The translations under genes and the position numbers were made by a program. This document shows positions 2,498-6,364 of a stretch of DNA of 35,511 nucleotides, in pieces (position 1 is the stretch's first letter; each line of letters opens with the position of its first letter). The notes below the pieces were generated by a model. It had not been told where the DNA came from, searched no databases, and saw only the letters and a program-made list of their open reading frames with translations. The stretch lies in IMG/VR virus record IMGVR_UViG_3300012942_000033, positions 1 through 35,511 of that record. One strand, 5' to 3'. The stretch is from a virus (lineage: Duplodnaviria; Heunggongvirae; Uroviricota; Caudoviricetes).

Positions 2498-2529
2498 CAA
2501 GAGCGGATGGTTCCTACCATCCGCTCTTG
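2498..2529 (+). terminator. Perfect 14-bp hairpin after the sheath stop codon (probable terminator or processing site)
   Basis: CAAGAGCGGATGGT-tcct-ACCATCCGCTCTTG; no immediate U-tract (TTTT about 8 nt downstream). Confidence 0.6.
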
Positions 2530-2543
2530 CCATGACTTTTAGA

Positions 2544-2572
2544 TTGCACTTAGGGCCAGTTTGTCATAAAAC
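2544..2572 (+). promoter_or_regulatory. Candidate sigma70-like promoter for the downstream structured RNA
   Basis: TTGCAC-N17-TAAAAC, enclosed by GCCATGA(2529-35)/TCATGGC(2576-82) inverted repeat; imperfect match. Confidence 0.3.
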
Positions 2573-2577
2573 AGATC

Positions 2578-2940
2578 ATGGCATCGAGGGCTAACGCCCT
2601 GAACCCATAATGTGACCATTGGTGACTGGGCTGTGTGCTGACACATAAAGGTATCTCCGTAGTGGCGTGCGGGATTGGTCATAGCTCTGGAATGAACCAG
2701 ATAAGGTGTGGCGAGGTCCTTTTAGGGTCTCCAGGAGTTTGAAGGTTTCGGCTTTCTAAGGTAACAGGTGCGGGAAGAACTCCCCCGCGTCCCCTTCTAG
2801 GCGTTCGTGTAGGGGGTTAAGTAGATCCGCTGATTCGGCCAGGCTCAGAAGGATCGAATATGGTGAGGAGGCAGGCCCCGGTCATAAGTCCTCAGTGATA
2901 TGGCATCACCCTGTTACCCGATCGGTGAGGTGTTTTCTTT
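2578..2940 (+). ncRNA. Candidate large structured ncRNA (~360 nt), family unknown
   Basis: No credible ORF; more than 10 stems incl. UUCG and UAAC tetraloops; long-range helices 2760-68/2910-18 (9 bp perfect) and 2611-18/2676-83; G-U pairs indicate + strand; ends in T-rich tract. Confidence 0.6.
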
Positions 2941-2966
2941 GACATCCTGTCATCCTGTGTTAAATA
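2939..2966 (+). promoter_or_regulatory. Candidate promoter TTGACA-N16-TAAATA
   Basis: Perfect -35 at 2939-44; TAAATA (2961-66) also matches the late motif seen elsewhere in this window. Confidence 0.5.
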
Positions 2967-2969
2967 GGC

Positions 2970-3272
2970 ATGATGGATAAGGAAATGACTGTGGTAGAAG
3001 CGTTCTACCGTGATGTCTCGGATCTGCTGGGCATCGAAAGCAATTACGAATACAACCCCTACACTCGTGGGGGAACGTATCGAACCCGCTGGAATAACCG
3101 CACGCCTGGCAACGGTCGGTTCGAGGGGTTCGGTTTGATTCGGTTCTTTGGCCCGAATGTGATCCACGTTGTGCTTCACAAACCCGTTCAGATAAACCGT
3201 GTCTACGATAGCACGGAAGCGGTTCTCGATGCGCTGCGAAAAGCAGTTGACACAGAGAACCAGGCGTCTTAA
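2970..3272 (+). CDS. Hypothetical protein, 100 aa (start could be 2973 or 2985)
   Basis: ORF between promoter and Ro60 leader; Arg/Trp/Gly-rich core RTRWNNRTPGNGRFEGFGLIRFFG; no family recognised. Confidence 0.7.
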   Translation: MMDKEMTVVEAFYRDVSDLLGIESNYEYNPYTRGGTYRTRWNNRTPGNGRFEGFGLIRFFGPNVIHVVLHKPVQINRVYDSTEAVLDALRKAVDTENQAS

Positions 3273-3279
3273 TAGGCGC

Positions 3280-3452
3280 TGATCATATCGACCCGTCTGT
3301 TGGTATGATCAAGAGATAACCGTTCATATCTCGAATTCAAAGCTGTGGTTTTGAATCTGAGTGGCCGTCTCCACTCCTTACGATCGATGTCTTCCGGCCC
3401 TAATGTCAGGGGCCAACCTTGCTCATGGGTTTCATGAGCCGAATAAGGAGTG
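3280..3452 (+). promoter_or_regulatory. Structured 5' leader of Ro60: six tandem hairpins plus anti-SD element
   Basis: Hairpins at 3280-3311, 3313-32, 3335-56, 3359-76, 3396-3414, 3421-39; CACTCCTTA (3372-80) is the exact reverse complement of TAAGGAGTG (3444-52, the SD). Confidence 0.75.
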
Positions 3453-3458
3453 ACTACT

Positions 3459-5144
3459 ATGACCAACTACACCAAGACTCTGGCTGGCGTGAATACCCAC
3501 GTGACCACGACCCCTCAGTCGAAGCCCATTGTGGGCCGAGAGGCTGAGATGGCCAAGAATAACGCGGGTGGATTCACCTTCACTATCACGCCCTGGGATC
3601 AGCTGGATCGGTTCCTGATCCTTGGCACCGAGGGTGGAACCTATTACCAGAAGGAGCAGGAGCTTACCGTGCAGAACGCACAGAATGTTCTGCGTCTCAT
3701 CGGGCAGGATGGCGTTCGGGTTGTGAATCGTGTCGTTGAGATCAGCGATGCTGGTCGTGCGGCCAAGAATGATCCTGCGCTCTTTGTGCTCGCAATGGCA
3801 AGTGCGGCTGATGATGAGGCAACGCGTCAGGCGGCTCTAGCAGCTCTGCCGAAGGTTGCTCGTATCGGTACCCATCTGTTCCATTTCGCGGCCTTCGTTG
3901 ATGGTATGCGTGGTTGGGGACGTGCTCTTCGTCGCGCCGTAGCGAACTGGTATCTCGAGATGCCGCTTGACCGTCTGGCCAACCAGGCGATCAAGTATCA
4001 GGCTCGTGATGGTTGGTCGCACCGCGATATGCTGCGTCTGGGCCACCCCAAGACATTTGAGGCAGAGCGTGATGCTATCCTGCGTTGGATGGTCGGTGGT
4101 ATGGATGCCGTGGCATCACAGGAGTATCACCGTGGTTCGACGATCCTTGACAATGAGGTGACTTTGGCCCGTAGCGATGCGACTGACATCCTACACTCGC
4201 AGATCCAGGCATTCGAGGCGGCTAAGAAGGCCACTTCGGCCAAGGATATCATCAAGCTGATCAAGGATGCTGATCTTCCTCGTGAGGCTATTCCAACTCA
4301 GTTCCTCAACGACGCAAAGGTCTGGGAGGCGCTGTTGGCGAATATGCCGCTCGGTGCGATGATCCGTAACCTGGGCAAGATGTCGAGCGTTGGTCTGCTG
4401 ACCTCGATGTCACAGGCGGAGAAGCTCGTTCGGGCTAAGCTGTCGGATGGAGATGTGATCCGCAAGGCACGTCTACACCCTATGGCCATCTTGTCGGCAT
4501 TCCTGACCTACGGTAATGGTCGTGGTGTCAAGGGCAGCAACACTTGGTCTCCAGTTCGCGGTGTTGTGGATGCCTTGGATCAGGCCTTCTATGGTTCGTT
4601 CAAGAACGTGACCCCCACGGGCAAGAACACTATGTTGGCTTTGGATGTTTCGGCATCCATGACCTGGGAGAACTGTGGTGGTGTGCCTGGATTGACTCCT
4701 CGGGTTGGTTCGGCAGCTATGGCTCTGATCACCGCGAATGTCGAGAGCTCCTACGAGTTCGTGGCATTCACGAGTGGTAGTGGCGGCCTGAGCGAGCTCA
4801 AGGTTTCGCCGCGCCAGCGGCTGGATGACGTGGTCAGCACGATCAACCGGCTGTCGATGGGTGGAACGGATTGCGCTCTGCCGATGGTTCATGCGCTTTC
4901 GGCTAAGCTGCCTGTTGAGTCGTTTGCTGTCTACACGGATTCAGAAACGTGGAGTGGTAGGATTCAGCCTTCGGAAGCCTTGAAGAAGTTTCGTGCTTCT
5001 ATGGGTATTCCGGCAAAGTTGGCGGTCGTTGGTATGACTTCTACTGGATTCAGTATCGCCGATCCTCAAGACGCCGGTATGATGGATTTCGTGGGATTTG
5101 ATGCCAGTGCTCCAGCAGTAATGGCTGATTTCTTTCGAGGCTGA
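3459..5144 (+). CDS. rsr: Ro60/Rsr RNA-binding protein (TROVE + vWA domains)
   Basis: TROVE motifs 'NNAGGF', 'LDRFLILGTEGGTYY', 'RIGTHLFHF', 'GWGRALRRAVANWY', 'KYQARDGWSHRDMLRLGHP'; vWA MIDAS 'LALDVSASM', 'GGTDCALP', 'VYTDSETW'; SD AAGGAG 8 nt before ATG 3459. Confidence 0.95.
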   Translation: MTNYTKTLAGVNTHVTTTPQSKPIVGREAEMAKNNAGGFTFTITPWDQLDRFLILGTEGGTYYQKEQELTVQNAQNVLRLIGQDGVRVVNRVVEISDAGRAAKNDPALFVLAMASAADDEATRQAALAALPKVARIGTHLFHFAAFVDGMRGWGRALRRAVANWYLEMPLDRLANQAIKYQARDGWSHRDMLRLGHPKTFEAERDAILRWMVGGMDAVASQEYHRGSTILDNEVTLARSDATDILHSQIQAFEAAKKATSAKDIIKLIKDADLPREAIPTQFLNDAKVWEALLANMPLGAMIRNLGKMSSVGLLTSMSQAEKLVRAKLSDGDVIRKARLHPMAILSAFLTYGNGRGVKGSNTWSPVRGVVDALDQAFYGSFKNVTPTGKNTMLALDVSASMTWENCGGVPGLTPRVGSAAMALITANVESSYEFVAFTSGSGGLSELKVSPRQRLDDVVSTINRLSMGGTDCALPMVHALSAKLPVESFAVYTDSETWSGRIQPSEALKKFRASMGIPAKLAVVGMTSTGFSIADPQDAGMMDFVGFDASAPAVMADFFRG

Positions 5145-5146
5145 AC

Positions 5147-5180
5147 GGATAAGGGAGGCTCCTAAAAGCCTCCCTTATTC
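5147..5180. terminator. Hairpin between convergent rsr and HNH genes (probable bidirectional terminator)
   Basis: GGATAAGGGAGGCT-cctaaa-AGCCTCCCTTATTC, 14 bp with one G-U; overlaps the HNH stop codon. Confidence 0.7.
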
Positions 5181-5872
5181 ATATCTTCATAGAGTTGCAG
5201 GATCGTCTTCCATGAAGACGATCCTTTCTTTATGTTGTCAGTGCTTGATAAGACTTGCAGATTAGACCAATGACCTATAACTTCAGGTTGGATGTCATGA
5301 TCATAACCATCAGCTTTTGAGAAGATGTGATCTAGGTGGTAATCCGAATGTAGGATTTTAAGCCCCTGTGGATCAATAATGTGCTTCATAGCCTTCCAAC
5401 TACGTTCGGTGTATTTCTGCACTTCTCTAACGTACCGTTGGTAATCTGCGAGACTCTCTGGATCATGATAGTGACCATTCATACAGCCAGTGATTCTGGC
5501 CTTTTGACCAGCTAGTTCATATGAACTCAATCCAGTTGTTGGATCTTTAATAGATCTGGTTGATGCTGTCTTCCTAGCCGTTCTTTGGTAGCAATCCAGA
5601 CCATCTTTGATATCGGCTCTTTTGGTTTGCCTCATCTTCTTAGCTGATTTCAGGTAGCCATCTCCCCCTCTGGATTTAGCATTCTTCTGACTAGTGCGTT
5701 GAAAGATCGTCAGACCATCATCACCAATTTGGTTCATAGTAGCTATTCGAGACCTTTGACGGCGGCCAATAACTGCTGGACAGGATGATTGATGCTTTGA
5801 GCAACACCAGAGACCTGATTTGAATTGGTGAATAGCTGTTTGGTTACAACCGTAATCACAGGTAGTCATCAT
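5162..5872 (-). CDS. Free-standing HNH (His-Me finger) homing-endonuclease-like protein, 236 aa
   Basis: C-terminal 'YHLDHIFSK...HWSNLQVLSSTDNIKKG'; N-terminal Cys cluster CDYGC/CCSKHQSSCP; helical internal repeats; antisense to neighbours. Confidence 0.8.
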   Translation of the reverse strand: MMTTCDYGCNQTAIHQFKSGLWCCSKHQSSCPAVIGRRQRSRIATMNQIGDDGLTIFQRTSQKNAKSRGGDGYLKSAKKMRQTKRADIKDGLDCYQRTARKTASTRSIKDPTTGLSSYELAGQKARITGCMNGHYHDPESLADYQRYVREVQKYTERSWKAMKHIIDPQGLKILHSDYHLDHIFSKADGYDHDIQPEVIGHWSNLQVLSSTDNIKKGSSSWKTILQLYEDMNKGGF

Positions 5873-5900
5873 TCTAATCCTTTAATTTGTCACCTATATA

Positions 5901-5930
5901 TTGAAGCCTCCTTGTTGATTTTGCTATAAG
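5901..5930 (+). promoter_or_regulatory. Candidate promoter TTGAAG-N18-TATAAG
   Basis: Upstream of SD GGAGG (5937-41) and ATG 5948; same 18-nt spacing as five other sites in the window. Confidence 0.45.
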
Positions 5931-5947
5931 TTTTCAGGAGGTAACCC

Positions 5948-6364
5948 ATGTCTGAATTGTATATTGTGCCAAGAGGCAATGAAGTTCTCAAGTTCATGTC
6001 AACTATGGATAAGAACCTGGAAGACTACCACCGCTGGAAAGAATTATTTCAGAGCCTACAGGATGAAATTAAAACACGACATCCTTTTGAGATTAGCGGT
6101 GATGCTAAAGTAGCCAAGATTGTTTGGACCTCGTTCAACAAAAAGGATACCCAAGTGATTCTGAATGTTGAGCATAAGGGTTCAACAAGTTCGAGGTATT
6201 GGTTTGAGGTGATTGATCCTCTTTCATTTAGCCCTGAAAGGTTACCAGATTCCTATAGCAATGATGAAGTATATAATACTATCAATGCTTGGGGTTACGA
6301 TAAGAAGGTATTCAATACACAGGTAGCTAAAGACACTGAGAAACTTCTCCAAAAGTATCTATAA
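5948..6364 (+). CDS. Hypothetical protein, 138 aa
   Basis: Strong SD GGAGG then ATG; no family recognised. Confidence 0.8.
   Translation: MSELYIVPRGNEVLKFMSTMDKNLEDYHRWKELFQSLQDEIKTRHPFEISGDAKVAKIVWTSFNKKDTQVILNVEHKGSTSSRYWFEVIDPLSFSPERLPDSYSNDEVYNTINAWGYDKKVFNTQVAKDTEKLLQKYL

Follow-up and report, generated by a model that had tools for sequence, protein, structure and literature searches.

A Y RNA-like element adjoining the ribosome-binding site of a giant phage Ro60 gene, a candidate site of autoregulation

The rsr gene of a virus of the Caudoviricetes, encoding a homologue of the RNA-binding protein Ro60, was examined together with its leader in a stretch of 35,511 nucleotides (nt), hereafter the window, which is the first 35.5 kb of the 125-kb virus record IMGVR_UViG_3300012942_000033 of IMG/VR. 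The record is ~27% complete and the relatives of the window are giant phages of 416-469 kb. The original prediction for this DNA had taken the gene to encode Ro60, and the TROVE and vWA_Ro60 domains found in the product of 3459-5144 bear this out. A gap of 186 nt separates rsr from the open reading frame (ORF) upstream, and within it lies a core that is conserved among relatives, contains hairpins that covary, carries motifs matching the stems of Y RNAs and abuts the Shine-Dalgarno (SD) sequence, and one of its hairpins is of a type that recurs before other rsr genes. The features of the leader and of the genes on either side of it are as follows.

2970-3272, + strand: P0002, upstream ORF of 100 amino acids, function unassigned, syntenic with the leader and rsr in the clade and in the phage Phosso
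3359-3376, + strand: hairpin 4 of an upstream array (GAGUGG, loop CCGUCU, CCACUC), its 3' arm overlapping the anti-SD
3372-3380, + strand: far-upstream anti-SD CACUCCUUA, exact complement of 3444-3452, paired with it in the minimum free energy (MFE) structure
3382-3387, + strand: conserved 5' motif GAUCGA (CGA-type), of which UCG 3384-3386 can pair with CGA 3440-3442
3392-3395, + strand: UUCC beside hairpin H-A, alternative partner of GGAG 3447-3450, its CC invariant
3396-3414, + strand: hairpin H-A (GGCCCU, loop AAUGUCA, GGGGCC), putative counterpart of Y-RNA stem 2
3415-3420, + strand: linker AACCUU, giving with G3421 the sequence AAC-CUUG, putative counterpart of Y-RNA AACUUG, invariant in the alignment of 12 cores described below
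3421-3439, + strand: hairpin H-B (GCUCAUG, loop GGUUU, CAUGAGC), putative capped counterpart of the Y-RNA terminal stem
3440-3443, + strand: CGAA, giving with C3439 the sequence C-CGAA of the GNCGAA Ro60/Rsr motif, 3 nt ahead of GGAG, invariant
3444-3452, + strand: UAAGGAGUG, the SD and its flank, 3' strand of the anti-SD duplex
3459-5144, + strand: rsr (Ro60 homologue), 561 amino acids, with TROVE and vWA_Ro60 domains

The regions preceding related Ro60 genes were taken from IMG/VR, from JGI metagenomes and from contigs encoding homologues of P0002. Comparison of these revealed a block of ~65 nt (3382-3450), running from GAUCGA via the two hairpins to GAGCCGAA-N3-GGAG, that stood out from its flanks by much stronger conservation. 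The core is on the same strand as rsr, stops 15 nt short of the rsr ATG and is placed alike in all relatives; in L023 it begins 2 nt past the stop codon of the upstream ORF and is therefore part of a polycistronic leader. Covariation and invariance were judged on an alignment (A2) of 12 distinct sequences. Pairs changed on both sides were found three times in H-A and once in H-B, where G-C, G-U and A-U variants occur, and 97% of the cells were paired compared to 31-54% in slid controls. GAUCGA is kept in 11 of the 12 cores and is also present in L033, L037, L207 and Phosso, and the spacing between GCCGAA and GGAG is 3 nt in all but one of the 12. A covariance model of the core gave one match per genome in five related phage genomes, always ahead of rsr, and also found diverged forms, down to 63% Ro60 identity.

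Several other readings of the core were considered and rejected. A promoter (TTGCTC, 17 nt, AATAAG) is at odds with the distance from UUG to CCGA, which ranges from ~13 to 30 nt across leaders, and with the covarying stems and G-U pairs that fit RNA of the + strand only; a promoter scan found no promoter-like site on the + strand. H-B has no U tract downstream and was rejected as a terminator, and the interval between hairpin and SD is too short for either a terminator or a promoter. Two pseudoknots picked out by eye were dropped: one between AACC and the GGUU loop of H-B, which is lost in L002, and the other between GUCA of the H-A loop and UGAC after the SD, which is lost in L214, L213 and L010. 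An upstream ORF starting at the AUG made by GAUCGAUG was rejected on finding that L004 and L010 have no AUG, and pairing of GAUCGA with UUGCUC in the canonical order gives 5 pairs and one mismatch, much weaker than H-B.

The motifs of the core are those of the Y RNAs. In bacterial Y RNAs a GNCGAA near the 5' end is the likely contact of Rsr (Chen et al. 2014, PMC4201824), and it is akin to the GGUCCGA of animal Y RNAs, Ro60 contacting mainly that strand (PMC4201824). The Rfam consensus of YrlA, together with sub-threshold matches at phage rsr loci, has the order stem 1, CGAA, stem 2, tRNA-like domain, stem 2', AAACUUG, stem 1', and AACUUG is present in the YrlA and sbRNA consensus as well as in the YrlA-like RNAs of relatives. 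H-A lies directly 5' of AAC-CUUG, as stem 2 does in the YrlA consensus, and the leader continues AAC-CUUG-CUCAUG, loop GGUUU, CAUGAG-C-CGAA, which is the two strands of the Y RNA in reversed order. In L207 the UUG has become UCG, with pairing to the G of CGA preserved. Judged by its sequence, the leader core has the make-up of a circularly permuted minimal Y RNA: H-A would be the equivalent of stem 2 and H-B that of the terminal stem, with a capping loop at the point where the ends of a Y RNA lie.

The core does not belong to the YrlA family (RF02553) as defined by Rfam, scoring below the 69-bit threshold and giving no match in 2500-6000 even at E<=10. GNCGAA and CUUG are both present, their order reversed and the strands joined in a loop-capped hairpin; the canonical order (GNCGAA 5', CUUG 3') is seen in L056 and L107-L112. 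ARAGORN and the Rfam tRNA and YrlA models found no tRNA-like T or D arm in the leader. Of the broader properties of Y RNAs, adjacency to rsr on the same strand is found. Full-length YrlA-like RNAs are present in the complete relatives G001-G003, several in number and all sub-threshold (30-39 bits), more than 100 kb from rsr and among many partial tRNA-like matches. These RNAs (L107-L112, e.g. G002:463617-463726) have T-arm-like and D-arm-like sequences, GGGUUAUC, and terminal stems of the form N-C-CG(A/U)...UUG-N'. One of them, L112 from G002, the genome that also holds the leader L013, reads GACGAG-CCGA...CUUG-CUCGUC, with the same stem letters as H-B. In the window's own record the only match to the YrlA model is tRNA-like, scores 15 bits and lies at the far end (125162-125222).

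The hairpin is not confined to the clade. The 130 nt upstream of ~55 other phage Ro60 genes were listed, and 65 distinct phage leaders were counted. A hairpin of the form UUG-stem-loop-stem-CCG, ending no more than 35 nt from the start codon, was found in 29 of the 65 compared to 0.18 in shuffles, and the CCGA form in 18 compared to 0.07. From lineage to lineage the stems differ completely and UUG and C-CG are constant, and throughout the 29 diverse leaders the CGAA arm faces the ribosome-binding site (RBS). A strict version of the motif searched for in 282 kb was found 18 times in leaders, six times elsewhere on the + strand and not at all on the - strand. Among bacterial rsr leaders, the 80 most similar to that of the window being taken, eight had the hairpin against an expectation of 0.72, and in some of the eight CGAA directly abuts the SD.

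Y RNAs have their genes upstream of rsr and are made by processing of a shared precursor in M. smegmatis and D. radiodurans (PMC4201824). In the Thermus phage phiLo two CGAA-bearing hairpin RNAs, Yrl1 and Yrl2, come from the non-coding region directly upstream of the Ro60 gene, and phiLo Ro60 binds both in vitro, as seen by electrophoretic mobility shift assay and cryo-electron microscopy (PMC12135203). Both precedents, together with the presence of both Y-RNA stem motifs in the core, are compatible with the core being simply the rsr-linked Y-like RNA of this clade, of the hairpin Yrl type or YrlB-like, that is co-transcribed with rsr, cut out and acts in trans as a partner of Ro60 with no role in rsr translation. 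We consider this unlikely. The order is permuted, and CGAA lies on the 3' arm of a hairpin closed by a loop, as in none of the canonical Y RNAs found here; the fixed spacing of 3 nt to GGAG would be needless for a free-standing RNA gene; relatives already own canonical YrlA-like RNAs elsewhere; and the CGAA arm is turned toward the RBS in all 29 of the leaders with the hairpin.

The enclosed hairpins look like the Ro60-binding module of a Y RNA, and the likely effector is therefore Ro60 itself. It is quite possible that Ro60 binds its own mRNA leader and thereby blocks initiation. The leader has two properties of such an operator: a copy of the protein's target in its own mRNA, CUUG-CUC...GAG-C-CGAA being the stem of L112 and fitting the YrlA architecture, and a site at the RBS, CGAA standing 3 nt before GGAG in 11/12 cores. 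Under this reading 3382-3450 would be a cis element of the rsr mRNA that mimics a minimal Y RNA in permuted order. The chain would leave the mimic right after CGAA and reach the SD within 3 nt, such that free phage Ro60 bound to the mimic would sterically block binding of the 30S subunit. Synthesis of Ro60 would then be tied to the Ro60 left unoccupied by phage Y RNAs or substrates, and these would relieve the block. Physical binding of the leader by the cognate Ro60 is predicted by analogy with phiLo Yrl1 and Yrl2 and from the GNCGAA motif.

A number of caveats weigh against this interpretation. The hairpin is absent from 36 of the 65 phage leaders and from 72 of the 80 bacterial ones, and since so many rsr genes do without it, it is not essential to Ro60 biology. 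CGAA, UUG, CC and GAUCGA are invariant and thus beyond the reach of covariation, and CGA 3440-3442 has two rival partners, either UCG 3384-3386 or U3419/U3420 with C3440 bulged; the first of these pairings is itself invariant, so that covariation says nothing on it. Rfam 15 has no family over the leader, either in 2500-6000 at E<=10 or in the whole window at gathering thresholds. The hairpin could be excised as a small Y-like RNA instead, and as to the direction of control, repression and activation are both compatible with the findings.

GAUCGA and the loop of H-A are conserved and have no role assigned in the mimic model, which leaves an opening for a different factor. According to this alternative P0002, a host factor or a ribonuclease would recognise the core, which would serve as an element of mRNA stability or processing, its likeness to Y RNAs being incidental. 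In favour of P0002, its gene is co-linear with the leader and rsr in the whole clade and also in Phosso. The family comprises 23 clusters, is confined to the phage group of the window and has an invariant motif, TRWNNR..G.GRFEG.G.IR.F. Neither a Pfam nor a PHROG family matched P0002, and Atlas gave weak leads only; its AlphaFold model (predicted local distance difference test score 80) consists of a helix, six strands and a helix, without a match in the PDB. No recognisable RNA-binding fold was found by the family searches or in the AlphaFold model, which counts against a role for P0002 at the leader, as does the finding that the most distant homologues, P0024 and P0025, do not have rsr directly downstream. 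Against this alternative more generally, the UUG...C-CGA hairpin precedes rsr even where the end of the upstream gene is unrelated, L052 and L055 (contigs of L007 and L008) being the examples to which this applies, and in one relative the match to the phages' own Y-RNA stem is letter for letter. An unrelated factor is accordingly judged improbable, and clearly so.

The original prediction was concerned with a different part of the leader. It held that a far-upstream anti-SD and hairpin 4 are mutually exclusive partners in a translational switch, with a ligand bound to the loop array freeing the SD. Its structural description is accurate. Reading of the sequence gave CACTCCTTA at 3372-3380 and TAAGGAGTG at 3444-3452, which are exact reverse complements, the latter containing the rsr SD (AAGGAG 3445-3450, positioned 8 nt ahead of the ATG at 3459), and UCG 3384-3386, CGA 3440-3442 and the hairpins at 3396-3414 and 3421-3439 all lie where it had placed them. 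Hairpin 4 pairs GAGUGG 3359-3364 with CCACUC 3371-3376, so that 3372-3376 are common to both folds and the two do exclude each other. The RNAfold MFE structures of 3273-3475 and of 3355-3465 are exactly the proposed duplex closing a three-way junction, with pairing probabilities of 0.89-1.0 for the SD. As had been proposed, the fold that sequesters the SD is the predicted ground state, at -38.0 kcal/mol compared to -34.4 with hairpin 4 enforced (a cost of 3.6; hairpin 4 alone is worth -7.2 kcal/mol) and -29.2 with the RBS fully open (a cost of 8.8). In dinucleotide shuffles of the upstream 78 nt a 9-nt perfect complement of the RBS arose in 2/300 and the energy of the anti-SD duplex was reached in 9/300, which makes the match unusual for one sequence and not overwhelming. 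The duplex is real in the window and probably forms in this phage.

The alternative state is where the switch meets its first difficulty. Two competing states do exist, but enforcing hairpin 4 leaves the SD predicted to be paired, its partner then being UUCC 3392-3395 stacked on H-A, so that the ON state as proposed is not open. Covariation of the anti-SD helix was counted over the nine array-bearing leaders; no pair was changed on both sides and five of the nine pairs only decay, the SD flank GUG having become GUA or GUU in relatives without a matching change in the anti-SD. In hairpin 4 two pairs were changed on both sides among the same nine (L214, L210), the formal pair counts being made less sharp by shifts of one alignment column in L001 and L212. 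The compensatory change in L210 abolishes complementarity to the SD, and the anti-SD helix is also lost in L033. The core is kept while the array and the far-upstream anti-SD are both absent in L002, L004, L022, L023, L025, L209 and L037-39, so that about half of the core-bearing relatives have no anti-SD. The energy needed to open the RBS was no greater than in shuffled-upstream controls in 15/15 lineages, with or without the far-upstream region, and occlusion of the RBS by RNA alone was rejected on this ground; the energy of the far-upstream anti-SD duplex is notable in the window only.

Part of the proposed translational switch does hold beyond the window. Six close lineages keep the anti-SD in the same place with 6 to 9 contiguous pairs and use it in the MFE structure; in the window, L001, L212, L213, L214 and L021, ACUCCUU(A) stands directly 5' of (U)AGAUCGA. 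In Phosso an analogous triad is found with changed letters, an SD-like arm AAGGGAGAG followed by CUCUCCUU, GAUCGAA and later the SD AAGGAGAG, and a further variant of SD-like arm, anti-SD and SD beside GAUCGA occurs in L216. The balance of the folds varies, the SD being sequestered in the window and the anti-SD in Phosso, where the hairpin corresponding to hairpin 4 wins at -16.4 kcal/mol. These findings, with the exact complement and the mutually exclusive folds of the window itself, are what speaks for a ligand-operated switch in which the array favours hairpin 4 and translation is turned on. The lack of covariation, the loss of the helix in L210, L033 and the lineages without the array, an opening energy within the range of controls, the pairing of the SD with UUCC and the wide variation in relative stability of the folds all tell against it. 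No riboswitch family matched, no candidate ligand emerged and nothing in the gene context hints at a metabolite, the downstream gene encoding an RNA-binding protein; the ligand-sensing part of the original prediction thus finds no backing, and a switch of this kind is very unlikely.

The adenine (add) riboswitch is a translational three-way junction with a closing region that sequesters the SD. The leader is like it in its junction, which bears two hairpins of 6-7 bp, and in a closing helix that includes the SD, but it matches no riboswitch class, its closing helix is neither conserved nor covarying and no ligand is indicated. Hairpin 4 and the far-upstream anti-SD with which it competes lie outside the conserved core, as accessories of one sub-lineage, and the helix between SD and anti-SD is best seen as a lineage-specific closing of the permuted Y-like fold rather than as a conserved sensor. 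Under the autoregulatory reading, pairing of the SD with upstream pyrimidines would close the permuted fold and reinforce repression; the closing helix would be the 9-nt anti-SD of 3372-3380 here, and elsewhere perhaps just the invariant CC ahead of H-A. This may be taken a step further, albeit with considerable reservation: the leader would be a permuted Y RNA with an SD/pyrimidine closing helix, locked by Ro60, with Ro60 translation reporting free Ro60 against the load of RNA (Y RNAs, damaged or misfolded RNAs), a feedback device which in simpler hairpin form would be common to many phage and some bacterial rsr genes.

Autogenous control by mimicry is classical, well-known examples being the E. 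coli thrS operator, which resembles tRNA-Thr, the ribosomal-protein leaders that resemble rRNA and the replicase RBS hairpin bound by MS2 coat protein. The rsr leader resembles these in carrying a copy of the protein's RNA target at its own RBS, where free protein would compete with the ribosome, and differs in that the mimic is a permuted rather than a direct copy and that the case for Ro60 is a prediction from sequence. Like the YrlA RNAs (RF02553) the core lies beside rsr, bears C-CGAA and (A)ACUUG on opposite strands of a stem and has its second stem directly before AACUUG, whereas it is permuted, loop-capped, devoid of a tRNA-like domain, ~65 nt in length compared to 105-145 nt, without an Rfam score and situated within an mRNA leader at 3 nt from the SD. 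With phiLo Yrl1 and Yrl2 it shares the form of short CGAA-bearing hairpins directly upstream of a phage Ro60 gene; those RNAs were predicted as free RNAs and were not proposed to regulate in cis. The phage records matching the window's Ro60 did not include phiLo, and the leader is likened to Yrl1 and Yrl2 by description, not by sequence or motif order.

Y-like RNAs upstream of rsr are thus already known, phages included (PMC4201824, PMC12135203). In the literature searched no paper was found on autoregulation of Ro60 or its control of its own mRNA, and both the permuted Y-like form abutting the RBS and control by Ro60 of its own translation through it are undescribed there. Ro60 and Y RNAs have been studied in animals and bacteria, and how the amount of Ro60 is set relative to its RNA partners is a gap that a Y-RNA mimic at the RBS, if real, would fill with a simple and directly testable mechanism. 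It would also give structural studies a minimal Ro60-binding RNA of natural origin, ~45-65 nt in length, and would imply that circular permutation is compatible with the architecture of a Y RNA. In annotation, UUG-stem-loop-stem-C-CGA can be recognised as a feature immediately preceding an rsr start codon.

A test is practical because Phosso, a cultured relative, shares the gene order of the window and has a comparable leader. This Sinorhizobium phage of 469 kb carries a P0002 homologue, a structured leader (PV764938.1 290158-290303 = L215:461-606), Ro60 and a tail tube gene, in that order, with identities to the window of 49% for Ro60 and 41% for P0002. Its leader contains GAUCGAA, a UUG-CCC...GGG-CCGGA hairpin ahead of the SD and the -16.4 kcal/mol hairpin, the arms of which are SD-like and anti-SD-like.

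The stretch 3280-3376 holds four hairpins in immediate succession, with stems that vary and with CCGUC(U/C) or CUGUGG in the loops, possibly a protein-binding array. The array is carried by the window, L001, L010/L017, L021, L033, L210 and L212-214, its stems wholly different between carriers and its CCGUC loops the same, and the remaining core-bearing relatives are without it; a GNRA-type loop (GUAA, GUGA or GAAA) takes the place of that of the third hairpin in most relatives. In the closest relative (L001:2920-2935) the anti-SD is CACCUCCUUA, which we take to be the same as the 3' end of the E. coli-type 16S rRNA. The identity is a trivial consequence of complementarity to a very long SD; the L001 leader thus holds a cis copy of the ribosome's own anti-SD.

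ARAGORN found no tRNA in the window. Downstream of the rsr stop codon a terminator-like hairpin of 12 bp with a U-rich tail (5199-5225) sits within a convergent ORF (5162-5872; PHROG 5104, function unassigned). Three tandem Y-like RNAs precede rsr in one phage locus (L056:499-1130), one YrlA-like (40 bits), another matching the nematode stem-bulge family RF01656 (26 bits, with GGUUAUC and CAACUUG motifs) and the third having a stem in canonical order, GUGAGCCGAA...CUUGCUCAC, followed by a terminator-like hairpin.

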